This document shows, piece by piece, positions 2,648-28,100 of a DNA stretch of 53,168 nt; position 1 is the first letter of the stretch, and the number at the start of each line of letters is the position of its first letter. Below the pieces are notes generated by a model. That model was not told where the DNA came from, did not search any database, and saw only the letters and a list, made by a program, of their open reading frames with translations. The stretch comes from Geosiphon pyriformis uo1. Lineage: Eukaryota; Fungi; Glomeromycota. The DNA is taken from assembly GCA_016748015.1 (NCBI GenBank), contig JAAOMT010000205.1, positions 1 through 53,168 on the forward strand. The letters run 5' to 3'. The position numbers were made by a program, and so were the translations under genes.

Positions 2648-2655
2648 TATATATA
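2648..2655 (+). promoter_or_regulatory. Putative LTR TATA box (equivalents at 4544, 7950, 37737, 47990)
   Basis: TATATATA or TATAAAA at an equivalent position in each LTR family, downstream of the U3 array and upstream of AATAAA-like motifs and a T-rich tract. Confidence 0.55.
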
Positions 2656-3270: not shown

Positions 3271-3287
3271 TGGTGCTCTCTGTAAGG
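3271..3287 (+). promoter_or_regulatory. Primer-binding site of A
   Basis: TGGTGCTCTCTGTAAGG, 2 nt after the LTR end. Confidence 0.85.
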
Positions 3288-3330
3288 TATAATCCTACAA
3301 AAAACCAGCACCAACAACAATCATCCAAAA

Positions 3331-4324: not shown

Positions 4325-5125
4325 TGTTACTCATAGAAAGAAAACAGATATAGGGAAATAGTAGACCAATAAGTAAATAGCATGTAGCATGTGAACATAT
4401 TGCTCAGCAAGGTGGAGCAATGTCAGAAAACATGGCACATTGCTCAGCAGTGTGAAGCAATGTTAGAAAATTAGAGCACATTGCTCAAAAAATCATAGCA
4501 TAGCACTTGGGAATGTGAGCAATCTCGTAGAACATCAATTATGTATATATAGTAATAGCATTAAAAGTAGAAAGAGTAAAATCTTTTAACTAGAAATCTC
4601 TTATCCACAAATATTAAATAAATAAATTATTCACCATCCACATCTACTCTCCACTATCAACACTTCATGTTGATAGTAATTGATACTTAACCCTGTTGGA
4701 ACAATAGCTCTTGATCATGGCTATTGACAAGATACTAACTTACAATTGCTTTGGTTTATTTTTTTTTATGTTTTCATTTCTTTGTTTTACTAATTAATTA
4801 AAAAGTTAAGTGTTAAGTTATTGATGTCAAGGATAGCTTGGTAAAAGACCCCAAAGGAAAGGTATAGGAATTGAAAATTTAAGAATAGCTTACTAGAAGG
4901 GCATCTCTGTCAAGATTACTGGCCACCACGCTGAGAAAGAAATTTGACGGAATTGCAATTCCAGGAGACTACAGAAAAGACAACAATTAAATCTCTGTTT
5001 ATTATACAAAAGACTCTACAACAAAACTTTTAGATCATTATTATCATTACCAATGACAATAGCTCTTGAGCACCAAGTTATGGGTTTGTTATTTGACTTG
5101 AGACCCCAAATAATCAACTGTAACA
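4325..5125 (+). repeat. 5' LTR of B
   Basis: TGTTACTCATAG...TGTAACA; direct repeat of 33781-34600. Confidence 0.95.
4385..4525 (+). repeat. U3 array of B (ACATTGCTC / GAGCAATGT inverted units)
   Basis: Alternating ACATTGCTCAGCA and GAGCAATGT motifs; the 3' LTR copy has an extra unit. Confidence 0.85.
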
Positions 5126-5127
5126 TT

Positions 5128-5144
5128 TGGTGCTTCCTGTGAGG
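5128..5144 (+). promoter_or_regulatory. Primer-binding site of B
   Basis: TGGTGCTTCCTGTGAGG. Confidence 0.88.
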
Positions 5145-5188
5145 TATAATCCTACAGAGAACCAGCATTAACTACACCTATTCCAAAA

Positions 5189-7617
5189 ATGGCAGAATCA
5201 GAAAGTATAGGAGCAAACCATTTAGGATTCACAAAATTCTTATTTCAACACTACTGTCAACACTTGGGATTAAACCAAAATCATATATCAGCAGAATCAG
5301 TCTTCAATTTCTATGTTAATGAAAAAATTGCCTATTTGTTAGAAACACCAGTAAACACTGAATCAGCAAGAAAAATCTTTTACCATGAATTAATCCAAAA
5401 CACCAGTTTACCAACAAATTATAATTTTGCATCCATCATTACTGAGATTAACAAAAAAATTGAACATCATACACAACAAAGATATCCAATCACCTATGCA
5501 AGCAAAGGCAAAGAAAAACTACAAACACTAGCAGTAACATCTCAATGAATCCAACCACCCACTTGGAAGAAACACAAAGTTGAATCACTCACAAATTTAT
5601 TATATTATTATACTCCTAGAAGTGCCATCAATATCACATCAACAGACGCGTCTACATTAAATGTGATCTCAACATTTGGACAATTTGCATTCCAAAGTAA
5701 ACAAAGAAAAACAGACCTACTAGAACCATATGGTGAATACTTTGAAGGATTTAATTCACGATCGCCAACCCCATCAGGACTTCGATCACTGTCACTGCCA
5801 CCAAATTTTGGAATCTCTGATCCATGAGAAATAATGGAATCAGAAGAAGAATCTAAGGATCAAGAATTTACTTACCAAAACCCAATTCCAAAAAATCCAA
5901 CAATTGAAACCCCAAATCTCCAAACTCAGCAACATCTAGATTTAGAAAATCCAGAAATCAAAACCCTGAATATTCAAACACCACAAAATCATAACAATTC
6001 AAATCCTGAATTAATTAATCAGCCAAACTTACTTCCAGTAATTGTTATTAATCAACCACTAATTAAACCAATTATTGAACCAATTAAACCTCCTCAACAA
6101 CCTCAGCAGCTGTTTCAACAGCTGCAATAACAACTTTAACAACCAAACTTAGATTTAATGGCCTATGCTCCAATAGCAAAACTTGAGAAATTCACTGGCA
6201 AAGAAGATGATGCCCAAATCTGGCTCAACGACATTGAAAAAGCCATTACAGCCAATAGATAGAATGATGCAAAAGCACTCCAAGCTATTCCCTATTTTCT
6301 GCAAGATACCGCCAACTCGTGGTATCAAAGTTTAGTTGCCAAATCTTAAACATTCCAGAAATTTAAAGTTGCATTTCTGGAATATTTCAGTAATAATAAT
6401 AGTATTAACCACCTAGTCAACACCTTCACTACCATCAAACAGGGAGAAAATAAAGCAGTTACCACTTACTTAAGATGCTTCCACAGAAATCTGTGCCAAA
6501 TCCAGGTCATACAGACTGATTATTTTACAGCACCACAGATTCTGAATCAATTTATTAAAGGTCTGTACAGTAGCATTCTTTAATGCGTTTACTCAATGCA
6601 TCCAGTAGATCTTCAAGCTGCTGTTATGGATGCCAGAGATTTTAAAGCCACTGAACTCAAAGCCAATCATGCCTATACAGTAAATCTAGTGATGAATAAA
6701 CCATCTGAACTGGATTCCAAATTAAAACAAATCAGCAAATCAATCAATCAAAAATTAGAAGGATACTTAGCTAACACCAATCAAGCCATTTATTAACCAC
6801 CCCAATGACACAACAATTAGAAAAACAGAAATTGCTCTCAAAATCAGTCACGTTTAGCATCATTCTCGACCAATTAACAGTGGTAGCAAGAAATGCATGC
6901 ATGCCACTATTGTAGTAAACAAAGACATTTACAATTTGAATGTCGAAAAAAGATAAGCAACCAGAGATCAGCTAATCAGTATTAAAACTCTGATCGCCAA
7001 CTACAAATTCAGAATTATGTCAGTAATCAATCAAACTCAGCTCTATATTAACCGAATTACCTTCCTATGATGCAGCCAATATATCAAACTCCAATGATAC
7101 AGCAATTATACTCACCTCCAGTCTATCAGCCTCCAGCATCAATTTATCAACTGCAGTCCCAATCCATTTATCAGCCACAATCTCAGATAAATTATCCGCC
7201 CCAACAAAATCAGACACTGCCATATAACTTACCTTAAAACAGAACTCAAAGACTGAGATTAACACAACAGAGCTGGAGATCATTGATGGTAATCTATCAA
7301 CTGATTTCCAGTTCTGTAAACCTGCCATTAGGATCTCGACAACGGAATTTGAGCACCAGATACAGCCAAAACCTGAATGCACAACATTATTTAAGTCTTC
7401 TGGTTATCCCAGAAAACACCTTACTCAACAATATAGCAACCAACCAAAAACAACTAATCACCAGCAACATACCTCTAGCCACTATTACCAACAATAAATC
7501 ACTAGCAGCAATCTTCCCATTTGAATTTAAGGAAACTACACCAGTTCCATTATTTAGTGGAGCTGCTTTTGACACCAAACTAATCACCACTATGTACACT
7601 GATGTAAAAGTTAATGG
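5189..7617 (+). pseudogene. gag: B gag through start of protease (interrupted by C)
   Basis: MAESESIGANH...MAYAPIAKLEKFTGKEDDAQIWL, knuckle CHYCSKQRHLQFEC, then YTDVKVNG; Gag and PR in the same frame. Confidence 0.9.
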
Positions 7618-8709
7618 TATTACCCAAGTAAAAAAACCGATCCAAAGTTATGAAGAAATGTGACCAAAATGTGACATAATACAGAATAACGCGCAATAAT
7701 GTTGGATAACGCGTTATAATGTTAGATAACGTGTTATAATGCAGGATAACACAGAATAGTGTGCAATAACATAGGATAATGTGTTATAACACAGGATAAC
7801 ACAGAATAACATGTAATAATGTCAGATAATGTGTTATAACATAGGATAATTAGCAATAACATAGAAAAACGAAGCAATAACAGAAACAACAAAGCAATAG
7901 CTAGTGATAGCGAGACAATTGAAAGCAATTCTGTAAAACCAAAAGAATGTATAAAAGCAAATAGTTGTAAAAATGAGAAAAGACAGAGAAGAAAAAATAG
8001 ATATGAACCTCTAGACCAGAAATTAAAATATCCATACCCCTTCATCCTTTATTATTTTCTCTATTTTATCTCCTGAAATAAACCAATTATTAAAAGAAAT
8101 CAGAATCATGAATTTATGTTCTCAAACTTCGTGGAATTTACATGAATTAACCCTTGTCTTGTACTTCCATTTTAGAACAGATGCTCTTAACATAACCACC
8201 TCGAATCTATTAACAATTTGGACCAATTGCTCTTGATCACAGCAATTAATGATACTAATTTATTTTTTCTCTCTTTTCTTTTCTTTTCTTTTTCTTTTTC
8301 TTTTTTTTTCTGTCTTATTTTTTGTGGAGTGGCAACATAGTAAAATTGACTGTCTGGGAATAGACTTCGTGATAGCCTGGTAAAAGAGGGAAGCTCCCCC
8401 TAAGTTTTGGATATTAACATTATCTTGTTAGCTTACCAAAAGGGTGAAAAGACAACGCCAGACCCTAATGACTGTGCTCATTAGCTCAGAAAAAAAAGCT
8501 CATATTTATGAAAAATGTTGCAATCAACAAAAGACAAACTCTGTGCCTTATAACCAAAGAACTCAATGGGTAAAATTCACATTCAGAAATAGACTTTCAG
8601 AGACTGATAATCAAGACTAAGCCAACAGAATTACATGAAAGATGCATCATTAATAATTGAGAGCACCAAACGTTACCATTTCCCATATCCACCAAGTTTA
8701 CCTGTAATA
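7618..8709 (+). repeat. 5' LTR of C
   Basis: TATTACCC...TGTAATA (both termini decayed); direct repeat of 16768-17870. Confidence 0.95.
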
Positions 8710-8711
8710 TT

Positions 8712-8729
8712 TGGTGCTCCCTGTGAGGT
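8712..8729 (+). promoter_or_regulatory. Primer-binding site of C
   Basis: TGGTGCTCCCTGTGAGGT; tRNA-like complement of CCA, discriminator, acceptor stem and T stem. Confidence 0.9.
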
Positions 8730-11529
8730 TATAAATCCACAGAGACAGAGCACCCCCAAAAATACATAAAAGTGGCAACTATTGAAACAATAGGAAAGGA
8801 CCACTCCTCGTACAGAAAAGCACTATTTCAATACTTTTGAAAAGACCTAGGAATACCAGCAGAAACCGCTTACACAGAAAGGGATTTTTGTAACTATATC
8901 AATACAAAAATTGACTGCTTGTTAGGCCACACAACTAATACAGGAAGACTTGGAGAACAAATCCATCAAAGCTTACTAGGGTACTCAACAGCCATGACTA
9001 CCTGAGCAATCACTGAAACTCTGTGCATAATCGATATAGACATTAAATATTACGTGGCACAACGATTCTCTCAAGTACAACAACCAGTAAAATTCGGCCC
9101 TGAGGAATATGAAAACGAATCCAACAACCCCGTAACTGCCCAAGCCAAATCCATGGTCAACAAGAAACCAAGGGTCCTCTCCCCAACAACTCCATTATAC
9201 CATCAGATACTGCAAAGTAGAATTGTATTCAACCCACTCCTGGAAACCCAGTCAGAAACACCACGAACTCCTGGAAATCCACACCCTTGGAATCAACACA
9301 GTTGGACCAAATCACTAGGAGAATATGGATCGCTGTTTGGAAATCTTACCCCAGCAGCTGGTCAAACAGAAGGAAACCCATCAACTTAGGAACAGCCACC
9401 AGCACAAAACCTAGCAGAATCAGCATCTCCTCTAACGGAAGAAACAGCTATCTTACAACCTATTGGTTCAAGTAACAAAGGAAAACAACCAGCATTAGCA
9501 CCCAGAGAATACTCGAATACGCAGACACCAATCCCTTTAAACATAATCAGTAACACCCCACCCATTAACTGGATCATGGCTTACTGGGATATTGCTAAAT
9601 TAGAAAAATTCTCTGGTGAAGAAGATAACGCATATTTTTGGATTGTGAATGCCAAGAAAGCAATTACTGCTAACAGTTGGAACAACAACCACACAGTTCA
9701 GACACTGCCATTTTTTCTGACCAGAACTGCCGATTCATAGTACCAGAGTCTGGCAGAGAAGCCTACCTCATTTACCGAGTTTAAACTCGCATTTCTGTAA
9801 TACTTCTGTGACCCCAATATGTTAATCTGATTGCAGAATCAATTCAGCATAATTAAACAAAAAGATCACAAAGCAGTAACTACTTATCTCAGATGATTCA
9901 ATTAAATCCTGCATCAAATATTAGCTATCGAAAAGGACTACTACACCACAGCACAAGTTCTTAATCAATTCATTAAAGGATTGCAGAGTAGTATTCTAAG
10001 ATTCATAAGACCCCGCCATCTGACCAGTTTATAAGACGCCATCACTCTCATTCACAATTTTGAGTCTGCAGAACAAGAAGTGAACCATACTCAAGCCATT
10101 AATTTAGCCATTAACGGAACCTCTGATGTCAATGCAAAAATAACCCAATTGAGTAAGAAACTAACTCAGAAAATTGAGAGATTCTTAGCCGGAACTACAG
10201 GAACTTACCAACCACCCCAATGGAGCAAAAATAACAACAACAGCAGATACCCATAGCAACAGAACCGTTAGCAACAGCAACAACCTTGAAGATCCGATCC
10301 TCACAACTGCTACTACTGTCAAAAACCTGGACACATTGCCCGTGACTGCAGAAAGAAGATCATGGACCAAAATCAAGGAAACCCATACCAGCAACCCAGA
10401 TATCAGCAAAACATGATACCCCAATATTCCATACCTCAGAATCAACCACCCTTATACGCACAACAAGTTCCGTACACTCAACCACTGCTCCAGAATTATT
10501 ATCAACCACCACCAATGACACAAGCAATTCCTCACTATCAAACTTCCTCCTACAGCCCGTCCAGACTTCAAGCTATAGACTATAATCAGAGATGGAGGAA
10601 TCTCAACAACAATCAAGTACAAACCAACAGTGGACCATCTTGACCAATCCCTCGCGGTTCTGCCCAATTTCGACCAACACCAACTGGATACCTGAATCAA
10701 GCTTCCTATCTCAGTCTTATGGAAGACCAGGGTTTTGATAAATCTACACCTGTGGAAGGGGAGATATAGAACAAATCTCCCAACCTTCCAAGCAAACAAA
10801 AAGCAATATCCCACCAGCCACTATTACCGAAGACACCACCCTAGCCACCATATTTTCTTTTGACATTGATAATTTGAACACACATAGTCTTTTTAGTAGA
10901 GCAGCTATCAATCAAAATAAACCAATAACGGCCCTATATACCGATGCCAGAGTTGGAGGAATAGACATTAAATTAATCCTGGATAGCGGATCAGCCAGTA
11001 GCATAATCATGAAGCAGCTTATGGACCAACTAGGTTGCCGAGTAGACTGTGCTGCTACCACCCAAATCATTACAGCAGATGGAAACACAAAAACCCCGAT
11101 AGGAGAAATTGACAACTTCCCCTTCAAGATTAATGGAATCCAAATCCCTACCAAAGTACTCGTCATGAAAGCTACTCAATATCAAGATCTAGTAGGAAAT
11201 GACTGGTTGTCAAAAGCCAATGCTATTCTTGACTGGAACACCCAAGAACTTCAATTCACGTTCAACGGACAGCATACCCAAGTCCCAGCTACGTGCAGAC
11301 ACTTTAAAAACCAACATACCGAAGAACCCCTTATTGAATTCGAAGACACATCAATGCCACCAACCATCGAGACCTATCAGGTTTTATGGACAGATGATTA
11401 TTGAACTGAACTACCCCCACCACCAACCTGGGAAGAAAAAGGAAAAGGCAGAGCCGAAAAAGAATCCCAATCATCATCACTAGGATACATAACCTCAGAC
11501 CAAAAAAACTTATTTTACCAACTCCCAAG

Positions 11530-12160
11530 ACTAATATGTGTCGATTGTGGAAAAAAACTATCCACTATGGGTGCATGTATCGGAGACAATGAAGAATGGC
11601 CCACCACCACCAAATACTATTGCAGGCCTTGTTTACTGGAAAGATTTGAATGACCAAAACGACAAGGCAAGTGGAACCACATGCCGTGTCTCACATGTGG
11701 CGAAATTCTGCCAGATGAAGAACTTTGGAATGATGTGCCTGGCAGAGGAGAAACATGCGACGAGGCTTGTCAATACATCATATTAATCAATGATTGAGTA
11801 CGAAAGGGAACCCCCATCGAGAACGCTTGAAAACAAGCACTTAACAGACTAGACGGTTATCCACACAATGACCACAAAATCTGGAGAATGGCAAGTGCCA
11901 AGGCCGAAGGCGTCATGCCTGAAGAAATACGAGAAATTAAGAACAACCCTTGGACACCTGAATATACTGGACCCGACTACCCTGAAGATGATTTCTTTAC
12001 AGATAACCCAGACGCATTTCAGAACCAATATCAGGAATTGGCCCTGACTCATGAGGAACAGGAGCAAAGATTGGCCGATTTGAATACCAAACTATGTGAT
12101 CACTGTTTGATCCCCTGTCACTTCCAATACTGCGATGAATGTGATCTCATGTTCAATCTG
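11530..12160 (+). other. Cys-rich domain (three putative zinc fingers) between PR and dUTPase in C
   Basis: CVDC..CRPC, CLTC..CDEAC, CDHCLIPCHFQYCDEC; the same Cys pairs occur in A, B and D. Confidence 0.7.
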
Positions 12161-12314
12161 CCTTTAAAAATACTGTTTTTAATTACCGAACTACCTGAAC
12201 TCGAAGAAGAGGTATTGATCACTGAGGACATGTTGTTTCAAGATCCAACTGAAGATACTGAAACAGAACAGTATCTCGTGTATTCCGACCTATCCAAATA
12301 ACTAGAGCTAAAAT

Positions 12315-12740
12315 AGTACAGTGACAACAAGGGAGAAATCTGCCCCAAAAGAATGCATGACACTGATGCTGGTTTCGACCTATGATACCCTGGACAATTA
12401 CCCATCATTATAGCCCCATATTCCCTCATAAAAATAGATTTTAAGATAGCATTAGAAATTCCTGTTAGTACAATGGTACAAGTTGCCTTTTGATCTAGTC
12501 TAGCCAAGAAAAAAATTAACATAAAAGGAGGAATCATTGATGCTGGTTACATGGGAAACATCATTGTGATGCTACAGAACAATTCGAACAGACCCTATAA
12601 AATAAAATCACAAGAAAAGATTGCCCAAGCTATCTTCCTACCCCTAGTCAAAATATCCCAATTAACTCCAGTAACAACCCAAAAAGAGTTAGGCCTCACT
12701 ACCCGAGGAATCAACGGGTTTAGATTAAGTGGAAGAGGAA
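12315..12740 (+). pseudogene. dut: dUTPase domain of C
   Basis: Trimeric dUTPase motifs: DAGFDL, (R)SSLA, GGIIDAGYMGNI, KIAQAIF, RGINGF. Confidence 0.92.
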
Positions 12741-14570
12741 ATGTACCAGTTAATTTCACGGAGAAAGACAGTAACCAGGTAAAATTTATCCACACTGACA
12801 CTGTCATCTCTATTCCTCCATACTGACAATACATCCTCAAGGTGAATCAAAAAATCCAAGATCAAGCCCTATTATTCGAAGCCAGTCCTGAAATCTGTTT
12901 CCTAGCTAATGTTGCTAATCTATACCTACTGGCTAAAGTCCATAAACACTTCAAAATCTCCATCCACAACTCTACAGAAAATGTTATTGAAATTCCCGAA
13001 AGGACCCTCGTCAATTCCATATCTGCAGATATTCAGAATCCTAAAAAACTCCAGTCTATTCCAGACTTTACACAATTATTCTTATTCTGTGATATTACCT
13101 CACAAGTATAAAATTTGCCAAAAGAAAGTTACTTGTTCACACCAAAAGAGATCAATAAATTGAATTTAGGAAATTTAAGTACTCTGCAACAAATGCAACT
13201 CAAAGTCCTTCTGAATCAATATGCCGATGTCTTTGCCAGCGAAAATAAGTTCAGACGCACTGACATCATGAAGCATCAGATTGATACAGGAGACGCTCGA
13301 CCAATTAAGCAAAAAATTTACCATGTACTCTCATCTGGCAATAACCTAATTAAGCAAGAAGTGCAATGGATGCTTGATAACGGCCTAATCAAAGAATCGT
13401 TAAGCCCTTGGTCCTTGCCAGTAATCTTGGTCACCAAGAAAAATGGGAAAATGCGATTCTGCATAGATTATCGAAAACTAAATAGTGTCATGCGAAGAGA
13501 TAGTTATCCCACTCCCTTCATCCAGGAAATTCTGGACAATCTAGGGAAAAAGAAATGGTTCTCGTCATTAGATTTAGCAAGTGGTTACTGGCAAATTGAA
13601 ATGGACCTCAAAGACAAAAGAAAAACAGTGTTTACTACTCGAGACGGAAACTTCGAGTTTAACGTAATGCCTTTTGGACTTTGTAATGCTCCTGCTACGT
13701 TTCAATGCCTGATGGATGTAGTATACAAAGGAATCTTTTGGAAATCAGTAGTAGTTTATCTAGACAACACAAACGTGTTCTCCAAAACATTCAAAGACCA
13801 TCTGCTCTACCTGCAACAAGTCTTCGAATGCCTTCGTAGTGCTGGATTGAAACTCAATCCCGAGAAATGCTTCTTTGGAAAAACTGAGTTAAAATTCCTA
13901 GGACATGTAATTGGCAAGGATGGAGTTAAACCTGATCCAGATAAAGTACAAAAAGTTAAGGATTTTCTAGTCCCAATCAACCTTAGAGAATTATGAGGAT
14001 TTCTAGAATTAGCAGGATATTATTGTCAATTTGTCAAAGGTTTCTCAAACATCGTAAAACCACTCCATCAATTGTTGTCCAAATATGTACCATACTTGTG
14101 GAAGGAAGATCAACAGAAAGCATTCGACTATCTCAAACAGCAATTGATCACATCCCCAATCCTGATTTATCCAGATTTCACTAAACAGTTTATTGTCACT
14201 ACGGACGCCTCAAAAAATGCTCTAGGAGCAGTCTTATCACAGATAGGACTGGACAATAGAGAACACCCAGTTGCCTACGCTAGTCACAGTACTAGCCCAG
14301 CAGAAAAAAATTACAGCACAACAGATCTGGAATGTCTCGCCATTTATTGGGCCATACAGACTTGGAAATATTACCTCAGTCAACCATTTGACCTATATAC
14401 TGACTACAAAGGACTTATTTGGTTATTCAACAATCCATAACTAGAAAGAAAATATGCGAGATGGAGTACTTATTTGCAACAATTCTCACTCAAAATCCAT
14501 TACAAAGAAGGATCCAAGAACACCAATGCCGACAGTTTGTCAAGGATGCCACAAACCTAATCCCAGACCC

Positions 14571-15938
14571 ATGAACACACTCACTTATCAACAACTACAT
14601 CAGTACCTATCGACACTATGTTTCAAGAAGATATTATCTCAACAGGAACAGAGTACCATATAAAAACAAGCCCGAAATTATTTTATTTAAGACAACCAAC
14701 TATATCAATGAGAATGCTAAAACCACCCCAACCCACAACGACTAATCACGGACAGTGAAAGAGGAACTATACTATATAGCATGCACTCAGATCCAACTGC
14801 AGAACACTTTAACAAAAACACTACCCTCGAAAGAACACTAAACTTATACTATTGGCCAATGATGCACAAAGACATTTTTGAATATGTGCTCAATTGTGAC
14901 GCATACCAGCAAAGAAGAGGAGCAAGATCAACAGAACCACTTCAACCCATTCCAGTTGGAAATCCATTTGATAGAATCAGGATTGATTTGGTTGGATCTC
15001 TTTTAATTACATCCCAAGGAAATCACTATATCACTGTAGCTGTAGACTATCTTACAAAATGGCCAGAAGCCAGAGCAATCCAAGTGGCTGGTGCCAAAAC
15101 AGTCGCCAAATTTGTGCATCAAGACCTAATTTGCCGACATGGATGTCTGAAAGAATTATTATCTGATCAGAAAACACACTTTGTTAATAATATGCTGATT
15201 GAACTAAGCCAATGGTTTGGAATAAAGAGACCCTTATTGTCACCATACCACCCACAAATGAACGGACTGGTAGAACAATTTAACAGAACACTGTGCAAAG
15301 CACTAGCAAAAATAAGTCATGAAAACAAACAAGAATGGGACTTATTCATACTTTCTGTACTCTTTGCATACCGAATATTGAAACAAAATACGACTCAGTT
15401 CACACCATTCAAACTAGTCTATAGAAGAAAAGCTACATTACCGATTGAATGAGTGATACTGTCATACCCAACAGAAACAATCAATGAAGAGAATTTTGAG
15501 GCTATCTTATACCAAAAAACGTACCAGCTAATGGAAACATTGGAAAACAATCGAAGAACAGCAGCTGACAATATTAGTCACACTCAAGAATAACAAAAAA
15601 AAAGACATAATAAACACCTATCAGAACAACTAATGAAATTCAAGATTGAAGACCAAGTACTGTTACATTGTACAAAAGCTGAAAAACAGTGGAGTGGAAA
15701 GTTCAACCCAAAGTGGGACGGTCCATTCCACATACACAAAGCATTAGGAAATGGAGCTTACAAATTATGATTGGAAAACAGGATTTTAAAGAAAGTAGCA
15801 CATAGAAATCGGTTAAAAATTTATCATGTAAAACAGGAATCATCGTCATCAGTACCTCAACTAGGAACACAAATTTCATTAATCAGACCAGAAGATATAC
15901 CACGAGATCTGGAACCAATTATCGTCATCGAAATGTAG
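14571..15938 (+). pseudogene. C integrase, separate ORF (455 codons)
   Basis: Own ATG 10 nt after the RNase H stop; H..H..C..(C) zinc site, IDLVG, LSDQ, PYHPQMNGLVEQFN, WDGPF; no chromodomain; start and final TAG share one frame. Confidence 0.9.
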
Positions 15939-16018
15939 ACAATGGGCAGCAAATTAAATTGGGGAATTCAAATATATATAGCATCCAAAAAGCAGCAAGA
16001 AATGATAGAAATTTTAAC

Positions 16019-16753
16019 ATGGATCTTTCAGATCAAATTTTAAAATTATCTAAACAATTATTTAAAACAATTCAAAAATCAACATCTCAAATAGAAATAA
16101 CAATTGATAAAAAAGAGATACGGTACAAAAATAAGAACAGGAGAAGAGAGGACGAGAGTTCAATTAGAACTAAACATTCCCTTCCCTACCCACCACCCGA
16201 AAGGCAATGTGGGAGGAAAAATTGCCTTCAGGTGGGGGGTGGAAAAGAAGGAGGCAAAGAACAAAAAAAAGGTTACAAAAGAAGATACTTGGTTCCCGAG
16301 CTCGAAAAAATAAAAGAAGCTTTAGCTCGTGGGACTGAACTCCCCAAAACAGGGGAGTGAACACCTGACAATGCCCAGAAATAGAAAGAAAGACTTCCTC
16401 CAGCTTATTGGTTCTACAAAATTGGAAAACAGCTTGACTTGAAAACACCATACAAAGACCTCAGCCAGAAAACATTTAACAAAAAAGCAATACAACAAGT
16501 AGAAAAATTTGTAGGGAAAAACAACCTGACCCTATATTACAAAGCAGCATACCAACTATACGCCACCTTCTAACATTGCCCAAACGTACTACTGAACGGA
16601 TCTATGAAAACCATAACAGTTAACAGCATAGGACGAATAACCAATCAACAGTTCAAAGACCTACAAAAGGCAATACTCGAGGCAACAATCGAACATTACA
16701 TGAACGAAGCCATGATAACAGATACATATGGTTTCGCAGGAGCTCAATTTTAA
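16019..16753 (+). pseudogene. C ORF3, unknown protein (244 codons)
   Basis: MDLSDQILKLSKQLF...YWFYKIGKQL...YKAAYQLYATF...ITVNSIGRITNQQF...GFAGAQF*; homologues at the same position in A, B and D. Confidence 0.85.
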
Positions 16754-16767
16754 AAATAGAGGGATAA
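16752..16767 (+). promoter_or_regulatory. Polypurine tract of C
   Basis: AAAAATAGAGGGATAA directly before TG of the 3' LTR. Confidence 0.85.
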
Positions 16768-17870
16768 TGTTACCCGAGTAGAAAAACCAATTCAAAGTTA
16801 TGAAGAAACATGACCAAAACGTGACATAACACAGAATAATGCACAATAATATTGGATAATGCATTATAACATTGGATAATATGTTATAATGCAGGATAAC
16901 ACAGAATAGCACGCAATAACATAAGATAATGTGTTATAACGCAGAATAACACAGAATAACATGTAAAAATGTCAGATAATATGTTATAACATAGGATAAT
17001 TAGCGATAACATAGAAAAACGAAGCAATAACAGAAACAACAAAGCAATAGCTAGCAATAGTGAGACAATTGAAAGCAATCCTGTAAAACCAAAAGAATGT
17101 ATAAAAGCAAGTAGTTGTAGAAGTGAGAAAAAACAGAGAAGAAAAAATAGATACAAACCTTTAAACCAGAAATTAAAATATCTATACCCCTTCATTCTTT
17201 ATTATCTTCCCTATTTCATCTCCTGAAATAAACCAATTATTAAAAGAAATCAGAATCATGAATTTATGTTCTCAAACTTCATGAAATTTACATGAATTAA
17301 CTCTTGTCTTGTACCTCCGTTCTAGAACAAATGCTCTTAGCATAACTATTTCGAACCTATTAACAATTTGGACCAATCGCTCTTGATCATGGCAATTGAT
17401 GATACTAATTTATCTTTTTTTTCTTTTTTTTTCTTTTTTTTTCTTTTTTTTTCTTTTTCTTTTTCTTTCTTTTTCTGTCTTATTTTTTGTGGAATGGCAA
17501 CATAGTAAAATTGACTGTCTGGGAATAGACTTCGTGATAGCCTAATAAAAAAGGGAAGCTCCCCCTAAGTTTTGGATATTAACATTATCTTGTTAGCTTA
17601 CCAGAAGGATGAAAAGACAATGCCAGACCCTAACAACTGTGCTCATTAGCTCAGAGAAGAAAGCTCACATTTATGAAAAACATTGCAATCAACGAAAGAC
17701 AAATTTTGTGCCTTATAAAGAACTCAATGGGTAAAATTCACATCCAGAAATAAACCTTCAGAGACTGATAATCAAGACTAAGCCAACAAAATTACGCGGA
17801 AGATGCATCATCAATAATTGAGAGCACTAAACGTTACCATTTCCCATATCCACCAAGTTTATCTATAACA
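16768..17870 (+). repeat. 3' LTR of C
   Basis: TGTTACCCGAG...TATAACA. Confidence 0.95.
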
Positions 17871-17874
17871 ATGG

Positions 17875-20800
17875 CCACACTATTAAACTGATTCTAGACA
17901 GTGGATTAGCTGGCAGTATAATTACATGACAACTCATGAACCAATTAGATCACTAAGTTGATCGAGCTGCCAGTACACAAATTATTACTGTGAATAGAGC
18001 AACCAAAACTCCTATTGGTAAGATTAATGATTTTTCTTTTGAAGTAAATAGTATTATTACACCAATCAAAGTTTTGGTGATGGAAGCTACTCAGTATCAG
18101 GCATTAGTTGGTAATGACTGATTAGTCAAAACAAACACTGTGCTTGACTGGAACACACAAGAACTACAGCTCAGCCAGAATGGCCAACACACATGGGTAC
18201 CTGTTATGTGTGGTTATTTCAAAACTCTTACCCTGACAACACCACTTATCGAGTTAGAAGAAGAAGAGAAGAAATTTACCTGGGAAGCCTATTAAGTATC
18301 TTGGGCCAACAAAGACCACAATGAGCTACTGCCAATACTATTATAGAACAAGCCAGAAAAAAAAAAACAAAGAGAAGAACTCACCTGGAAAACTGACGAT
18401 TTGACATGGACTGATAATGACAAACTAACATCCAATTGGGAGTAAAAAAAAGATAAAGGAAGAAACAAAAGGAAAGGAAAAGAGAAAGATATCATCCAAG
18501 CCAACAACACTTATATTCCAGCCATCTATGCTTTATTACAACAGTCTACCTATTGCCAATTCAAACTAGTATGCATTAATTGTGACAAGAAACTGTCGTC
18601 AATGGGTGCATGCTGTGGTAATGACAAGGAATACCAAATGGCAACTAAGTTTTACTACTGCTCATGCCTCATTGAACACTTTGGAAGACCAAAATAAGTT
18701 GGAAAATGGGACAATGAACCATGCTTGGCTTGTGGTAAAACTTTTCTTAATGAAGGAATGTGGAATAACATCCCTGGAAGAAAAGAAACATGTGATGAAT
18801 TGTGTCAGTACACAATTCTCATAAATGACTGGATGAGAAAAGGAACACCCATAGATGCTGTCTGGAGGCGAGCCATTAAATGCTTAGATGGTTGTCCACA
18901 CAACGACAACAAGATCTGGCAAATGGCTATCACCAAAATCAAAGAAGCATCATCAGAAAAAATTAGGACAATCAAAAACAATTCTCCAGAGCTCATAGAA
19001 CTTGACTGGGACCCAGAACCAGTCATAAATCTTTTGGACCCAGAACAATTCCATAAGCACTACCAAGAATTAGCATCCACTAGAAAGGAGCAGAAACAAT
19101 GCTTAGAAAAAATAAACACCTGATTATGTGACCACTGTTTGATTCCATGTAACTTCCAGTATTGCAATGAGTGTGATCTTATTTACAATCTACCACCATG
19201 CATGATCTACACAATCTCAGAAGAAAATGAACCAATGAGCAATTGCACATCAGAATTAAAATCAACTTTTGATCCTGATTCAAACTCCAACAATGATAAT
19301 AATGAAAACAACAGTTTCAGTTCCACTCCAAATAGCAATGAAAATGATGATGATTCAAACTCTGATTCAAAAACCCAAAACCTTTATCACACTTTCTGAT
19401 CTTTTCAAGAAACAGGAACTTAAATGGTTCAGTGATAATGGCAAAGATATTATGCCAGAATGTACACATGATACTGATGCAGGGTTTGACCTGAGATATT
19501 CTGAGAAAAATCCCATCAAATTAAAATCACATTCGCACACTTGCATCGATCTGAAAATAGCACTGGAAATTCTAGCAACAACAATAGTTCAATTAGCATC
19601 CAAGAGTAGTTTAGCAAAAAAAGGAATAAACATCAGAGAAGGAATAATTGACACAGGATATATAGAAAATATCATTGCTATGCTACAAAATGATTCAGAA
19701 AAAGCATATGTCATAGATCCAAATGAAAAAATAGCACAGGCAATATTTCTACCTCTGGTGAAAATAGCTCAGTTAGTGTCAGTAAGAAACAGGGAAGAAT
19801 TAAGGATCACAGCTAGAGGGATATAGGGATTTGAATCAACAGATAGAATAGATATACCAATTAATATGGCAGAGGAAGTTATTGACAAAGGAGAAATTAT
19901 CTCAATCTGCCAATCAATCTCTATTCTACCATATGACCAGTATATGTTAGCTATAAAGAGAGAAGTAAAGAATCAAGTTCAGTTGTTTGAAGCAGAAACC
20001 ACCATTTGTGAATCAGGAGAGATTAGACTCACCAATCTCTACATATCAGCCAAAAGCCCCAAAAACATCAAAATTCCCATCTACAACACAACCAGAAACA
20101 TTATTGAAATACCAAAGGGAACTATCATTGGATATTTAACCACTGAAGTTGAGAATCAACCACCAAACCACATCCCAGATTTTTTACAGCTGTGTGGATA
20201 TGTGGATATTACATCATAAACCATTTACAGACAAAGCAAATGTTATCTGCTCCAACCAGAACAATTAGAACAGATGAACATGGGGAATCTAGACCCACTC
20301 CAACAAATGCAACTAAAAATGTTACTCAGCAATTTCAATGATATCTTTGTAAGCGAAAATGAATTTGGCCACACCAATATCATTCAGCATCAGATCAAGA
20401 CTGGAGATGCAATGCCAATTAAGCAAAGAGCATACAGAGTACCACCAGCTAGCCATGAGATCATTTGTTAAAAAATCAATTGGATGCTTGACAATGGGCT
20501 AATTCAGCCATCAATAAGTCCATGGTCATTACCAGTGGTACTAGTTCAGAAGAAAAATAGAAAAATATGCTTTTGTATTGATTACCAGAAATTGAATGAA
20601 GTAACCAAAAGAGACAGCTACCCAACTCCAAAGATCTAAGAACTGTTTGACACCTTTGGAGGAAATAAATGGTTCTCAACACTAGATTTAGATAGTGGCT
20701 ACTGGCAAGTAGCCATGGATCCAGCCGACAAAGAAAAGACTGCATTTATAACAAAAGAAGAGAATTTTGAGTTTAAAGTCATGCCATTTGGCTTGATGAA

Positions 20801-21673
20801 CACTCTAACAACATTTTAATAACTTATAGAAATTGTCTATACAGGATTACTATGAAAATCAGTAGTTGTATACTTAAATAACACAAATGTATTTTCTAAG
20901 ACATTTGATGACCATCTATATTATCTCCAACAAGTATTTGAAAGACTCAGACAAGCAGGATTGAAACTAAATGCCAACAAATGCTTCTTTGGCAAAACTG
21001 AGCTCAAGTTTTTGGGACATGTGGTGAGCAAAAATGGTATCAAAACAAATTCAGATAAGATTGCAATAATAAAGAACTTTCCAGTACCAACAAACTTGCC
21101 AGAACTAAGGGCATTTTTGGGATTTGCAGGCTATTATCGCCACTTTATCAAGGATTTTTCTAAACTAGCCCAGCCACTTCATTATTTACAAACCAAGAAT
21201 GTAAAGTATGAATGGACTGAAGCTCAACAAAAAGCATTCAACATATTGAGAAGAAAGCTTATTCAAGCTCCAGTGTTGATATATTCAGACTACAGCAAAC
21301 CATTCATCATTACTACAGATGCATCAGGTCAAGCATTGGGAGCAGTACTATCACAGAAAGAACCAAATGGAAGAGAACATCCAGTAGCTTATGCCAGTAA
21401 AAGCTTAAGTCCAGCTGAAAAGAACTATAAAACACCAGCACTGGAACATTTAGCAATCTATTGGGCAGTCATGAAATGGAGAGAATACTTGAGCCAAAAG
21501 TTTGAAATATATACGGATCACAAGGGATTGACTTCAATCCAAAAACAAGAATTTGCAGACAATTACCATGCCAGATGGAAAATAGAACTTCACCATTTAA
21601 TTATACAGTACATTATAAAAAAGGAAAAGACAATAGAAATGCTAATAAATTGTCGTGAATAAAACAAATCTAA
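17875..21673 (+). pseudogene. pol: B pol: PR, Cys-rich domain, dUTPase (about 19420-19850), RT, RNase H
   Basis: ILDSG; DAGFDLRY, IIDTGY, KIAQAIF; LDLDSGYWQV, YLNN; TTDASGQALGAVL; ends QI* at 21671-21673. Confidence 0.92.
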
Positions 21674-21703
21674 AAACATTTCAACCCAAAAATATAACAA
21701 AAC

Positions 21704-22195
21704 ATAAATACACAAAAATACTAACAACTTTAATATTATATAAATACCCAATTGTTCAAGGAAAAATTATCTCAAAAAAAACAAAACAACATAAAACAAC
21801 AATCAAAATATTTTATCAATCATCAAAATATGCTTTACTGAAAGAACAGAAGAAATTCAGATCAACCAATCAGAGTAATCACAGAACCAGAGAAAGAGAC
21901 AATATTATTCAACATGCACTCAGACCCAACAGCAGGACATTTTCATAAAGAAACAACCATAGAAAGAACCAGAAAAAGATACTATTGGCTATTAATGTAT
22001 TCAAATACCATCCAATATGTTCAAAATTGTGATGCTTGTCAGAGAAGAGAAAAAACAAGACTCAGTGAACCATTAAGACCAATCAAAGTGAAACAACCAT
22101 TTGATCATATTGGAATTGACTTAGTCAAACCATTAACAATTACCAGCAGAAACAACAGATATATTGCAGTAACTATGAATTATCTCACTAAATGG
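21704..22195 (+). pseudogene. B integrase, 5' part (interrupted by D)
   Basis: ATA (decayed ATG), MHSDPTAGHF...CDACQ, IGIDLV, YLTKW; resumes PEAKA at 32183. Confidence 0.9.
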
Positions 22196-23042
22196 TGTTA
22201 CAGGTGACAATTTCTGGTGTTAAATTAAATACGAACTCGTAACTTGGTGCTCAAAGCTATTCTCGTTGTCAATGATCTGAAGGTTTGGTATCTGAAGGTT
22301 TTGTATCTGAAAGGTTTGGTTGAGTTCTTTGTATAATGGACAGAGATTCAATGGTGATAGTTTTTTCTGTAGCTTCCCGAAACCGCAGTTTTGTCAATTT
22401 TTTTCTCAGCTTGATGACTGGTATTCCTTCTGGTAAGCTATCCTCAATCAAGTGTTCTACCCTTATTTCTGGGTCTTTTACCAGTCACGTTTATCCTGAC
22501 GTCAGTGTCTTGTGTGTTAATTCTCAATAGAGTTAGTAAACAACAATAAAATCAAAACAAGAAAATAAATAAAATAAAATAAAATAAAGAAAGAAAAGAA
22601 ATAAGCCAAGGCAATTTGCGAGTTAGTATTCCATCAATAGCCATGATCAAGAGCTATTGTTCCAGTGTGATTAAGTATCAATTACTATCAACATGAAGTG
22701 TTGATAGTAGAAATGAGTTTGAGATAACAAATAGTTATTTATTAGATGATTGTAATTTGGAGAGTTGCTTAGATTAAATCTAAAACTAAGAGATCTGTCT
22801 TTTCAGCTTCTAATCCTGCTGCTATATATACATAATTGAGATTCCTCAATTCTTCACAACAAGAATCCTGAAATTTCTGGAATCCTGAAATTCTGGAATC
22901 CTGCGATTCCTCGTCAGAGAATCCTGAAATTCCTGGAATTCTGCAATTCCTGAGAGGAATTCTGGAATTCCACATTTACTATGCCTACTTCTGATTGGCT
23001 AATAATCATGCTAATATATTTCTTATATTTCTATGAATAATA
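22196..23042 (-). repeat. 3' LTR of D
   Basis: Repeat of 31257-32178; preceded on minus by PPT AAAAGGAGAGAATAA (23043-23057). Confidence 0.95.
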
Positions 23043-23055
23043 TTATTCTCTCCTT

Positions 23056-23685
23056 TTAATATTGAGCTCCGTCAAAATCCAACTCGTTTAATTCCCCCTC
23101 TTGAAGTATTTCTTGGATTTTGTTTTCGAGAATTACTTGTGTTATTTGGGTCTGTAATTTTTTAAATTGAGCATTAGTGATCTTTTTCAATTGATTACTG
23201 GTAACCATATCCATTGCTTTGTTGAGTAATATTTCTGGTCTATCCTAAAATGCTGTGTGTATTTGGTATATAGCTTGGGCCTGTGTGGATAAGTTGTTCT
23301 TTCTCACAAAATTTTTTAATTGTTGTGATATTCTTTTGTTGAATAATCACTTTGTTTTATCTGTATATAGATTCTGGATATTTACATGTTGTCCCAAGTA
23401 AAAATAACAATAGTTTCATGGAAATTGTTGTATCCACCAATTCCAAGTTTCTTTAGTCAACTCTTGATATAGTGACTCTTTTGTCGACTCTCTTATTGCT
23501 AATTTTACTTTCACAATGATTTTGTTCACAGTATTTTCAGTTTTCTTTTGTGTTCTGGATTGCAATGTCTTTCTAGTATCTTGATATCAAATGGTTTGTT
23601 GATTGATTATAATCTCCATTTCCTGGTGTTGGATCAATTGAAAGAGTTGTTGTGCTAATGAATAAATGTTGTCTGTAATTTCCAT
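23056..23685 (-). pseudogene. D ORF3, unknown protein (209 codons)
   Basis: MEITDNIYSLAQQLF...YCYFYLGQHV...AQAIYQIHTAF...DFDGAQY*; single frame with point stops; absent from the ORF track. Confidence 0.85.
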
Positions 23686-23739
23686 TTTTCTGATATTTCC
23701 TGTCGCATCTACCATGTCTTTATATATTTTTTTGATGAA

Positions 23740-25118
23740 TCAATTTGATGTGTTGTTGTCAATAATGATTGGTTCCAGATCTCGTGGAATCTGATCTGGT
23801 TGAACTAGTATTCTCTGTACTCCTAATTGTGGAATATTACTGGTGGATGGTGGTATGGTGTTGTGGTATGGTTTCAGTCAATCTCTATGTGCTGCTTTGG
23901 TTAAGATTTTGTTGTCTAGTCTTAATTTGTAAGCTCCATTTCCTAGAATTTTTTCTATGTGAAATGGTCTGTCCTATTTGGGATCAAATTTTCCACTCCA
24001 TTGTTTTTCCACTTTGGTATAATGTAAAAGTACTTTGTTTCCAATCTTGAATTTAATTGGTTTGTCTGGTAGTTGATTATCATGTTTTTTTTCTGTTTCT
24101 CTTGTGACTTTTGTATGTTATCAATTGCTCTTCTTTGTTTGTTTTCCAATGTTTCCATTAAGTCATATGTTTTTCTTAACAATGTTTCTTGGAAATTCTT
24201 TTCTGTTATTGGTTCAGTTGAATATGTGTTGATCTCTATCTTTACTGGTAATGTTGCTGTTTTACCGTATACTAATTCAAATAGTGTTGCTTGTGTAGTG
24301 TCTTGCTTCATTGTTCAATAAGCAAATAGTACTAATGGTATTAACATGTCCCAATCATTCTGGTTTTCTTGGCTAAGCTTATCTATTGCTTCACACAATG
24401 TTCTGTTGAATCTTTCAACTAATCTGTTGGTTTGTGGATGGTATGGTAATAATAGTGGTCTCTTAATTCCGAATTTTTGGCTCAATTCTGTTAATGTTCT
24501 GTTCACAAAATGAGTTCCTTGGTCTGATAATAATTCCTTTGAACATCTGTGTTGACAAATTAAATCTTGATGAATGAATTCAGCAATGGATTCTGCATCT
24601 GCTCTTTGAATTGCTTTCACCTCTGGCCATTTAGTGAGATAGTCCATGGCTACTGCTATGTATCTGTTTTCTCCTCTAGTGATTGTTAATGGTCTGACTA
24701 GATCAATTCCAATACAGTCAAATGGTTGTTTCACTTTAATTGGTCTTAATAGTTCACTGGGTTTCATTCCTCCTCTTCACTGACAAGCATCACAATTTTG
24801 AACATATTGGATAATGTCTGGATATATTGATGGCCAATAGTATTTTTTTCTGGTTTTTTCCATGGTTGCTTCTTTGTAAAAGTGTTCTGCTGTTGAATTT
24901 GAGGGCATGTTGAATAATATTGTCTCTTTTTCTGGCTCTGTAATTACTTTGGTTGGTTGCTCTAGCTCTTTTCTATTTTTTTGATAAAGTATATTTTGGT
25001 GAATGATAAAATATTTTGATTGTTGTTTGATACTCTTTCGTTCTGTTTGAGATAAATTCTTCTTGAACTGTTAAGTGTTTATATAATGTTGCAGTTGTTG
25101 ATATTTTTGTATGTTCAT
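23740..25118 (-). pseudogene. D integrase, separate ORF
   Basis: MNIQKYQQLQHYI..., CDACQ, IGIDLV, LSDQGTHF, PYHPQTN; ATG 61 nt after the RNase H stop. Confidence 0.9.
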
Positions 25119-25179
25119 CTTTTGTTATATTTTTTGTTGGTATTGTTCTGGTTTTGTTATATTTTGAGTTGAAATGTTC

Positions 25180-28100
25180 TTAGATTTGTCTCATTCACAA
25201 CAAACCATTAGCATTTCCATTGTCTTTTTCCTTTTTATAATGTATAGTATAATTATATAGTGTGAGTGCCATTTTCTATCTTGACTGTCTTTTATCTCCA
25301 AATTCTTGTTTTTGAAGTGATGTTAATCTTTTGTGATCTGTGTATACTCCAAACTTTTGGCTCAAGTATTTTTTCCATTTCATGACTGCCCAGTATATCG
25401 TTAAGTGTTCTTGTTCTGGTGTTCCATAGTTCTTTTCGGCTGGTGTTAAACCTCTGCTGGCATATGCTATTGGATGTTCTCTGCTGTCTGGTCTTCTCTG
25501 AGATAGTACTGTTCCCAATGCTGGGCCGGATGCATTGGTGGTAATGATAAATGGTTTGCTGTAATCTGGATAGATTAGTACTGGAGCTTGAATGAGCTTT
25601 CTTCTCAGAATATCAAAAGCTTCTTGTTGACTTTCTGTCCATTTATATTTTGTATTCTTGGTTTGCAATTGGTTGAGTGGCTGCGCTATTTTGAAAAAGT
25701 TTTTGATAAAACATTGATAGTAGCTAGCAAATCCCAAGAATGATTTCAGTTCTGTCATATTTGTCAGTACTGGAAAGTTCTTTACTATCTCTATTTTCTC
25801 TGGATTTATTTTGATGCTGTCTTTGCTGACTATGTGTCCCAAAAATTTTAGTTCTGTTTTGCCAAAAAAACACTTTGTTGCATTTAACTTTAGTCTTGCT
25901 CTTCTTAGTTTTTCGAACACTTGTTGAAGATGATGAAGATAATCATCAAATGTTTTTGAGAATACATTGGTGTTGTTCAAGTATACAATTACTGATTTCC
26001 ACAATAAGCCAGTATAAACAATTTCTATTAGCTTTTGGAAAGTGGCTGGTGCGTTGGTTAAGCCAAATGGCATTACTTCAAATTCAAAATTCCCTTCTCT
26101 GGTGGTGAATGCTGTCTTTTCTTTGTCAGCTGGATCCATGGTTACTTGTCAGTAACCACTGTCCAGGTCTAATGTTGAAAACCATTTGTTTCCACTGAAA
26201 GCATCAAATAATTCTTGGATCCGTGAAGTGGGGTAGCTATCTCCATGAGTTATTCCATTGAGTTTTCTATAATCTACACAAAAGTGGATCTTTCTATTCT
26301 TTTTACGAACGAGTATCACTGGTAATAACCATGGGCTCATTGATGGCTGAATTAGCCTGTTGTCAAGCATTCAGTTTATCTTTTGCCAGATAATCTTGTG
26401 GCTAGCTGGTAGTACTCTGTATGCTCTTTGTTTAATTGGCATTGCATCTCCAGTCTTGATCTAATGCTGGATGATGTCAGTTTGGCCAAACTCATTTTCA
26501 CTGGCAAAGATGTCATTGAAATTGTTGAGCAACATCTTAAGTTGCATACTTTGGAGTAAATCCAAGTTTCCTATGTTTATTTGTTCCAATTGTTCTGATT
26601 GGAGCAAATAACATTCGCTTTGTCCGTATATCATTTGTGATGTAATATCGACATATTCACAAAGCTGTGGAAAGTCCAGAATAGTGCTTGGTGGTTGATC
26701 CTCTATTTCAGTGCTTAAGTATCCAATGGTGGTTCTGGCTGGTATTTCTACAATATTTCTGGTGTTGTTGTAGATGGAAATTTTGATATGGTTATGGCTC
26801 TTGGCTGGTATGTGTAGATTAATAAGTCCAATTTCTCCTGATTCACAAAGGGTTGGTTCTGCTTCAAAAATCTGATTCTGTTTTTTTACTTCTTGCTTTA
26901 TCCCTATCATGTACTGGCCATATGGTGAAATGAAAATTGCTTGACCCACTGAAATAATTTCTCCTTGGTCAACAATTTTTTTTTCTGCCATATTAACTGG
27001 TACATCTATTCTACTCGTTGATCCAAATCCCTGTATTCCTTTCACTGTTATTCCTAATTCCTCCCTCTTTCCTACTGATACTAACTGAGCTACTCTAACC
27101 AGAGACAGGAATATTGTCTGGGCTATCTTTTTGTTAGGCTCTATTATATAGGTCTTTTCTGAGTCATTTTGTAGCATAGTGATGATATTTCTTACATATC
27201 CCATGTCAATTATTTTTCTTCTTATATTAATCCCTCTTTTCACTAAACTACTCCTAGATGCTAATTGAACTATTGTTGTTGCCAGAATTTCTAGTGCTAT
27301 TTTCAAATCAATGCAGGTGTGCAAATGTGGTTCCAATTTAATGATATTTTTTCCTGGATACCTCAGATCAAATTCAGCATCAGTATTGTGTACACGTTCT
27401 GGCATGATACCTTCATTATTGTCACTATACCATTTCAACTCCTGTTCTTTGGAAAGGTCTGGCAGTGCAATGTATTGTTCATATTTTGGGTCGGGGTTTG
27501 GATCTGAGTTGGAATTGTTGTCATTGTTAATGCCATTTTAAATGGAGCTGAAACCGGTGTTTTTGTTATCATCCTTGTTGGAGTTTGAATTGGAATTGAA
27601 AATCAATTCCGATTCTGATGTGCAGCTGTTGATTGGTTCTTCTTTTTTGGGGATTGTATAGATCATGTGTGGTGGTGGATTGTAAATGAGGTCACACTCA
27701 TTACAATATTAGAAGTCACATGAAATCAAACAATAGTCACATAGTCAAGTGTTTATTTCTTTCAATCTTTGTTCCTGCTCTTCTCTGGTGGATGCTAAGT
27801 TCTGATAGTGTTTATGGAATTCTTCTGGACTGTTTTCTAAGTTGAGAAAGATGTCCGGGTTGAGAACCAAAACAATGTCTGTTGGTTCTGGAGCATTGTT
27901 TTTAATTTCTAAAATCTCACTGGGTGAAGTGCCCTCTACTTTGGCATTGGCCATTCACCAGATTTCGTCTTTGTCATGTGGGTAATCTTCTAAGTGAGAG
28001 ATTGCTCAGTGCCAGACAGCTGTTATTGGTGTGCCGCGACTTACCCAATCATTGATGAGGATTGTGTATTGGCACAAAGCATCACACGTTCCTCCTCAAC

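Follow-up and report, generated by a model that had tools for sequence, protein, structure and literature searches.

An open reading frame in the env position of nested Geosiphon pyriformis Ty3/Gypsy elements encodes a non-env protein with a history of purifying selection

Is the open reading frame found in the env position of four nested retrotransposons of Geosiphon pyriformis a gene, and if so, what could its product do for the element? Passages of PMC7264820 describe a known kind of accessory gene in LTR retrotransposons, an extra sense ORF located 3' of pol and ahead of the 3' LTR. The locus studied here, referred to as the window, is the whole 53,168-nucleotide contig JAAOMT010000205.1. 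The original prediction held that each of its four elements carries such an ORF (ORF3), that the product is not env-like, and that it acts as a nuclear accessory protein, such as a transactivator, anti-silencing or targeting factor, of a family that was not recognised. The nest occupies positions 2366-43733 of the window and comprises four Ty3/Gypsy elements and one solo LTR, A holding B, and B holding C and the inverted D:

2366..43733, plus strand: element A, outermost, including the other three elements and one solo LTR of the D type (37497-38367)
4325..34600, plus strand: element B, broken by C and D, TSD GCAA
7618..17870, plus strand: element C, with LTR, PBS, gag, protease, dUTPase, RT-RNase H, integrase, ORF3, PPT and LTR, 4-bp TSD ATGG
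16768..17870, plus strand: 3' LTR of C, about 90% identical to the 5' LTR (7618-8709)
22196..32178, minus strand: element D, which interrupts the B integrase, plus-strand TSD ATGG

Retrotrans_gag/Ty3_capsid with CCHC, protease, dUTPase, RVT_1, RNase H and integrase domains were found in C, and the same order recurred in A, B and D (tblastn). All four elements have LTR pairs of 85-90% identity (blastn), a PBS beginning TGGTGCT, a PPT and 4-bp TSDs, the A copy with one mismatch. The LTR ends are of the TG...CA type, but C and D each have one LTR that starts with TA. By their LTRs, TSDs, PBS, PPT and gag-PR-RT-RH-IN order the host elements are Ty3/Gypsy LTR retrotransposons, and all four are dead copies.

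Several other features of the nest were recorded. A dUTPase is located between protease and RT in all four elements (12302-12799, with copies at 19416, 27441 and 37396/38385), and in each element it is preceded by a long Cys-rich, acidic spacer. The PBS at 8711-8728 and the other PBS sites read TGGTGCT(C/T)(C/T)CTGTGAGG, which we take to resemble the 3' end of elongator tRNA-Met, and the U5 of every LTR also contains a reverse copy of TGGTGCTC. Four of the five insertions have the TSD ATGG/CCAT (2362-2365, 7614-7617, 22192-22195 and 37493-37496), that of B being GCAA; this 4-mer occupies about 1% of positions in the cluster, and its repeated use as a target suggests sequence-specific integration. 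The sequence on both sides of the nest (1602-1910 and 43887-44585, minus strand) looks like decayed coding sequence that includes a CCHC knuckle and probably represents ORF1 of a LINE hit by the insertion of A. Outside the nest the window contains a 1.4-kb direct duplication (47393-48774 and 48929-50334, 86%) and an AT-rich inverted repeat (44890-45222). Rfam searches yielded no matches.

ORF3 was found in all four elements at the predicted coordinates, between the integrase stop and the PPT. The gaps separating it from the integrase stop are 80 (C), 54 (D), 56 (B) and 80 nt (A), and in all four cases the ORF3 stop is directly followed by a purine run and then by the start of the LTR:

16019..16753, plus strand: ORF3 of C, 244 codons with 3 internal stops; P0002 is an uninterrupted copy of the same type
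16754..16767, plus strand: PPT of C, immediately 3' of the ORF3 stop
23056..23685, minus strand: ORF3 of D, 209 codons with 4 internal stops; P0001 is an uninterrupted copy, 84% identity
23043-23055, minus strand: PPT of D, immediately 3' of the ORF3 stop
33130..33765, plus strand: ORF3 of B, 211 codons with 5 internal stops
33766-33780, plus strand: PPT of B, immediately 3' of the ORF3 stop
42006..42776, plus strand: ORF3 of A, 256 codons with 3 internal stops; C-type ORF3 in an element with B/D-type pol
42777-42791, plus strand: PPT of A, immediately 3' of the ORF3 stop

None of the four copies has a frameshift, in keeping with the claim that a single frame runs from ATG to stop despite the divergence, but each contains 3-5 in-frame stops, so none is open today. 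ORF3 has 1.2-2.4 stops per 100 codons; the corresponding densities are 0.25-1.5 for RT and 1.5-2.0 for the tail of integrase. The four ORF3s are mutually homologous (tblastn E values from 1e-13 to 1e-82), with identities of 56-61% for A/C, 38-43% for B/D and 25-34% for the cross pairs. The amino acid pattern that they had been proposed to share proved correct overall, except that D reads YCYFYLG and A has IR for IG. The ORF3 frame is the same as that of integrase in D and is shifted in A, B and C; in A and C it is open far upstream, into an overlap with the integrase tail. An additional in-frame ATG is present 30 nt upstream in D.

Selection was assessed at the codon level. The naive Nei-Gojobori method gave pN/pS values of 0.44-0.72 for ORF3, and non-coding LTR pairs, scored as a control by the same method, gave 0.52-0.66. 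Naive dN/dS was dropped as evidence of selection by itself, since non-coding sequence scores alike. The ratio is misleading because post-insertion decay consists almost entirely of transitions (333 of 349 mismatches between LTR pairs, approximately 95%), a bias which affects both dN/dS and LTR dating. CpG o/e in these elements is 0.27, and the LTR pairs differ at 29 of 41 sites in CpG context (71%) versus 17-29% in other contexts; this CpG-biased mutation suggests host methylation. The decay pattern of the LTR pairs (e.g. 7618-8709 versus 16768-17870) resembles methylation-driven or RIP-like mutation.

As a replacement, transversions at 0-fold and 4-fold sites of the ORF3 frame were compared. 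For A/C, 25 of 435 0-fold and 10 of 53 4-fold sites had transversions (P=0.0021); the corresponding counts for B/D were 50 of 360 and 11 of 25 (P=0.0005). P was below 0.02 in five of the six ORF3 pairs and 0.08 for A/B, where it should be considered that distant pairs were aligned protein-guided, with a bias toward a positive result, and that A/C is the cleanest pair. All six LTR controls were null, as were 11 of the 12 shifted-frame controls, the exception being A/B at shift 1 (P=0.012). Selection on ORF3 was about as strong as on the integrase tail and weaker than on RT. These results show that the ORF3 protein was under past purifying selection; the dN/dS check envisaged in the original prediction was uninformative in its naive form. 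We regard it as nearly certain that ORF3 is a genuine gene, kept by selection and not of the env type.

Homologues were then sought outside the window. The first protein search returned 137 matches among 4771 candidates; all 120 matches listed were named Geosiphon pyriformis, with up to 84% identity over the full length of D. When 1.84 billion representatives were searched with a profile, 106 matches reached E<=0.001, and the ten that were looked up comprised eight Geosiphon and two metagenomic proteins (P0161 and P0168). Further searches produced 62 matches (59 Geosiphon, 2 ENA and 1 window-encoded) and 11 matches (8 Geosiphon and 3 metagenomic). Altogether 237 proteins sort into 7 reference types, so that the homologues appear to form about seven subfamilies, nearly all of them from G. 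pyriformis, plus four metagenomic proteins. Seven of the 62 matches are gene models joining the integrase SH3 tail (PF24626) to ORF3, which indicates that integrase and ORF3 adjoin at other loci too.

The metagenomic contig encoding P0168 (L001) contains RT-RH-IN 55-59% identical to that of C and, after a 316-nt gap, an intact ORF3 of 230 amino acids. This ORF3 extends through a PPT-like run into an LTR-type start, TGTTA, the single such end on the contig. ORF3 is therefore linked to RT-RH-IN and a PPT in an independent element. Its C-terminal peptide ELSLEEEIML also ends P0161 and two distant Geosiphon types, which by this likeness probably abut a PPT too. A motif of type TTCGCAGGAGCTCAA just 5' of the PPT (16732-16748 and equivalents; 3086-3100 in L001) is kept across families. 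It is read in different frames, as FAGAQ in the window and SQEL in L001; because the nucleotides are kept while the reading frame differs, the motif probably acts in cis, either in plus-strand priming or in packaging. The 15-nt motif matched 49 viral-contig loci, none of which had ORF3 or RT/integrase.

When P0168 was used to query the ESM Atlas, a Mucoromycota cluster with 98 members ranked first (0.94, with 176 features in common) and hints at a wider ORF3 family. Such a family could mean that ORF3 is a gene captured from the host or from a neighbouring element, with little or no function for the retrotransposon, and the much faster divergence of ORF3 than of RT between the window elements (31-61% versus 58-81%) would agree with this. 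We consider a mere passenger very unlikely, given the codon-level selection and the lack of frameshifts across families with near-saturated synonymous sites, and the same position of ORF3 in L001. No usable match was obtained in the ESM Atlas with P0001, in the metagenome scan with P0161, in viral contigs with P0161 or the L001 integrase, or in a phage tblastn search. In PHROGs the best E value was 0.0012; nearly all families hit were unnamed, and none was common to different subfamilies.

The location between pol and the 3' LTR raises the question of an env-like membrane or movement protein. A 19-residue hydropathy of about 1.6 is the usual cut-off for transmembrane segments. In a Kyte-Doolittle scan of 11 ORF3 proteins the maximum over 19 residues was 0.27-1.29, i.e. 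none of the 11 had a segment of transmembrane strength; they contain 1-3 cysteines and lack a long hydrophobic N-terminus. No viral fusion glycoprotein was among the Pfam and structural matches listed, and the AlphaFold model (see below) is a small soluble helical domain. Location is all that speaks for an env-like protein, a reading which is scarcely credible. The further claim of a Lys-rich protein stands for A and C, with 45-57 K+R, but not for B and D, with 24-25. NLS-like basic clusters are clear only in A and absent from B and D, and three of seven reference homologues are acidic (pI 5.4-5.9).

An AlphaFold model computed with 13 sequences was unusable (pLDDT 39), whereas with 26 sequences the mean pLDDT was 77 and pTM 0.64, with approximately 85-95 over residues 81-200 (P0168 numbering). 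The predicted layout is an N-terminal helix and beta-hairpin (pLDDT 56-68), a disordered, often basic linker, and an all-helical C-domain (81-200), which bears out the helical appearance noticed earlier. Within the C-domain an HTH-like unit is predicted, made up of two helices joined by a G-K-(T/N)-N turn. Only N145, F160 and L167 are invariant alignment columns; with just three, no catalytic set stands out.

The family, which the original prediction had not recognised, could not be assigned to a named one with confidence. No enzyme family and no Tas or VANC family was among the Pfam matches of 30 and 26 members. The helical domain TTC3_9th (PF24905) matched one member in each set (1/30 and 1/26): its cut-off of 27 bits is exceeded by element B alone (29 bits, E 8e-7), and the B-type P0128 gave E 0.096. 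Foldseek found no match at E<=0.001 in PDB or BFVD, and the best E value in a PDB sequence search was 0.13. Fold comparison gave none of 48,161 chains at Z 5; the top rows were unrelated helical bundles and the N-terminal module was barely covered. A second structural comparison (VIA) gave none of 980 chains at Z>=5.

Some resemblance to bacterial HTH proteins was nevertheless followed up. Among the best 50 rows shown, ParB-type proteins were present (Spo0J, Z 4.0, rmsd 5.5, 94 aligned; KorB, Z 3.5, 5.1, 95; ParB, Z 3.3, 3.0, 59), scoring level with unrelated bundles. DUF1016_N matched 1 of 26 members (E 0.037), and in profile-profile comparison (16-sequence set) it matched over 58 columns in the same register with a probability of 14% and E 0.002, one of 25 block shuffles scoring higher. 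A narrower DUF1016 profile (12 sequences) gave no match in profile-profile comparison, the score with an HTH_ParB profile (29 sequences) was 11.9, within the shuffled range of 7.1-15.1, and a DUF3102 profile (3 sequences) did not rise above shuffles. As positive controls, HTH_ParB, DUF1016 and DUF3102 recognised one another at 78-94%. The ORF3 profile found no match in any of three bacterial genomes carrying DUF1016. The likeness of ORF3 to ParB, KorB and DUF1016_N over helix, GK turn and helix is thus weak and below significance, and a ParB/DUF1016-type HTH is to be taken as a lead, not as a result.

The cis context offers another approach to function. In all four copies a TATA-like hexamer is located in the gap between integrase and ORF3:

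15973..15979, plus strand: TATA-like box of C, 46 nt 5' of the ATG, candidate internal promoter
23720..23726, minus strand: TATA-like box of D, 41 nt 5' of the ATG
33087..33093, plus strand: TATA-like box of B, 43 nt 5' of the ATG
41960..41965, plus strand: TATA-like hexamer of A, variant TATATG, 46 nt 5' of the ATG

On the sense strand of the internal regions such hexamers have a background of roughly 0.5 per kb (0.006 for each 12-nt window), against their occurrence at -41 to -46 in four of four copies, which are however related and in which the pattern was spotted post hoc. The gap hexamers resemble the TATA box of three of the four LTRs. These observations point to a candidate internal promoter. 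In L001 the pattern is absent from the 119 nt before the ATG, and no enrichment of U3 motifs was seen near the proposed promoter. Out-of-frame ATGs precede ORF3 by 17 nt in C and 23 nt in B. The splice donor suggested earlier coincides in part with the PBS, where pairing with the tRNA probably constrains the sequence.

The U3 regions contain tandem arrays that differ between families:

16836-16990, plus strand: U3 tandem array of C, 10-bp unit
22863..22953, minus strand: U3 tandem array of D, 9/17-bp units; the other LTR (31937-32106) has a 39-bp period
33851..34002, plus strand: U3 tandem array of B, 40-41-bp unit
42896..43041, plus strand: U3 tandem array of A, 10-bp unit type as in C

A and C have a common ORF3 type and a common U3 array type. 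Up to about position 41,600 element A is 78-86% identical to B and D, it is then nearer to C through ORF3 and U3, and R-U5 is again of the B/D type. To judge from these identities, A is a recombinant with C-type ORF3 and U3 on a B/D-type pol, the crossover likely being at about 41600-41700, inside the integrase tail. The joint transfer of ORF3 and U3 can be explained by one template switch; it is compatible with a partnership between the two and is no proof of functional coupling. Element A also shows that ORF3 can function alongside a Gag and integrase core of another type.

The last observation bears on the idea that ORF3 acts as a separate protein in partnership with integrase or Gag, serving to tether the integration complex to chromatin or aiding particle assembly or nuclear entry, in a chromodomain-like role. 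ORF3 occupies the site of the chromovirus targeting domain, and in a Pfam domain search the integrase of C had an SH3_Tf2-1 tail and no chromodomain match. The target duplication common to four of the five insertions and the upstream opening of the ORF3 frame over the integrase tail in A and C are also in favour, as is the fold comparison with CHD1, whose helical C-terminal domain ranked fairly high (Z 4.3, rmsd 3.3, 82 aligned). Transposition of A with a C-type ORF3 and a B/D-type Gag/integrase core argues against tight co-adaptation, however, and the variable frame, together with the 316-nt gap in L001, makes a conserved fusion unlikely. We consider a role of this kind quite improbable. ORF3 also differs from the chromovirus targeting domain in that its C-domain is predicted to be all-helical.

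Taking the cis context and the predicted fold together, we tentatively prefer the view, to which we give a little less than an even chance, that the ORF3 protein, made from a promoter of its own, binds the LTR and activates the element or counteracts its silencing, much as foamy-virus Tas or VANC do. ORF3 would be transcribed from the TATA box in the integrase-ORF3 gap into a short mRNA ending in the 3' LTR, and the soluble helical protein would enter the nucleus. There the start of the second HTH-like helix, which is variable between subfamilies, might read the U3 tandem array of its own family. Binding to its own LTR DNA could increase full-length transcription or shield the element from silencing, in a genome that methylates its elements. 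ORF3 would thus work like Tas or Arabidopsis VANC while belonging to neither family.

A basic, helical, soluble protein at an accessory position could instead bind RNA, as a Rev/CERV-like export or packaging factor or as a suppressor of small-RNA silencing, possibly derived from an RNA virus. Cer1 CERV provides a precedent (passages of PMC10309623), and Gypsy elements are a main source of small RNAs in Rhizophagus according to passages of PMC8647823. The second ESM Atlas match of P0168 was a closterovirus coat-protein cluster (0.93), but with 156 of 256 features it falls short of the 170 typical of true family matches and recognition is under threshold. Foldseek found no viral structure in BFVD at E<=0.001, and DNA recognition is the simpler explanation for a second helix that varies and for U3 arrays that differ between families. 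We consider RNA binding rather unlikely, though it ranks next after the LTR-binding activator or anti-silencer.

The LTR-binding reading can be extended. A Glomeromycotina Gypsy lineage may have evolved the foamy-virus/VANC solution independently, with an HTH protein, perhaps descended from bacterial ParB/DUF1016, that is made from an internal promoter and recognises the U3 array of its family, ORF3 and U3 forming an exchangeable lock-and-key module for escaping host methylation. In this full form the proposal is unlikely to hold; if true, the module could account for the LTR burst in Geosiphon, where LTR elements make up 41.2% of the genome (passages of PMC11952901). A selected, family-diversified protein combined with family-specific LTR arrays offers a testable mechanism for LTR expansion in a methylating host, and if ORF3 is a DNA-binding regulator, fungal retrotransposons would have a counterpart of the transactivators of retroviruses. 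Should the mechanism prove wrong, a new protein family has still been defined, and well over a hundred 'hypothetical proteins' of Geosiphon become retrotransposon ORF3 copies or fragments.

A selected non-env accessory gene in a Glomeromycotina Ty3/Gypsy lineage, as originally predicted, is upheld by the transversion test and by the linkage in L001. The literature search, with Repbase, TE libraries, supplements and subscription papers outside its scope, found no description of the ORF3 family, and the passages of two papers on transposable elements of AM fungi (PMC11952901, PMC8647823) do not mention 'envelope' or an extra ORF. ORF3 thus apparently represents an undescribed accessory-gene family of Glomeromycotina Gypsy elements. 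New here are also the TATA-like hexamer before ORF3, the family-specific U3 arrays and the recombinant A. The sense aORFs in passages of PMC7264820 are alike in being conserved extra ORFs in the 3' internal region of most family copies, with unknown origin, but those described, from plants and insects, resemble env and have transmembrane segments, whereas ORF3 is soluble, fungal and of another sequence family. An accessory gene of maize Grande, cited in the same passages, is antisense and encodes a nuclear protein from its own promoter. Bdelloid LTR elements have non-env ORF3s encoding a GDSL esterase or a DEDDy exonuclease, and some lineages have a dUTPase, as here (passages of PMC5408684); ORF3 differs from them in matching no enzyme family. 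Cer1 CERV is a non-env third gene in a Gypsy-like element, expressed from a spliced mRNA and acting in RNA export (passages of PMC10309623).

Tas and VANC, like CERV, are working analogies only. Foamy-virus Tas/BTas is encoded close to the 3' LTR by an accessory gene that has an internal promoter, and its product binds LTR and internal-promoter DNA (passages of PMC4929722). ORF3 differs from Tas in that no sequence or fold link was found, its host is a fungal Ty3/Gypsy element without env, and DNA binding is here only proposed. VANDALs, which carry VANC, are DNA transposons. ORF3 and VANC have no common family match, and any demethylation by ORF3 is hypothetical. In passages of PMC5735166, VANC of Arabidopsis VANDAL is an element-encoded anti-silencing protein that goes together with tandem repeats specific to its family, in a host that methylates DNA.
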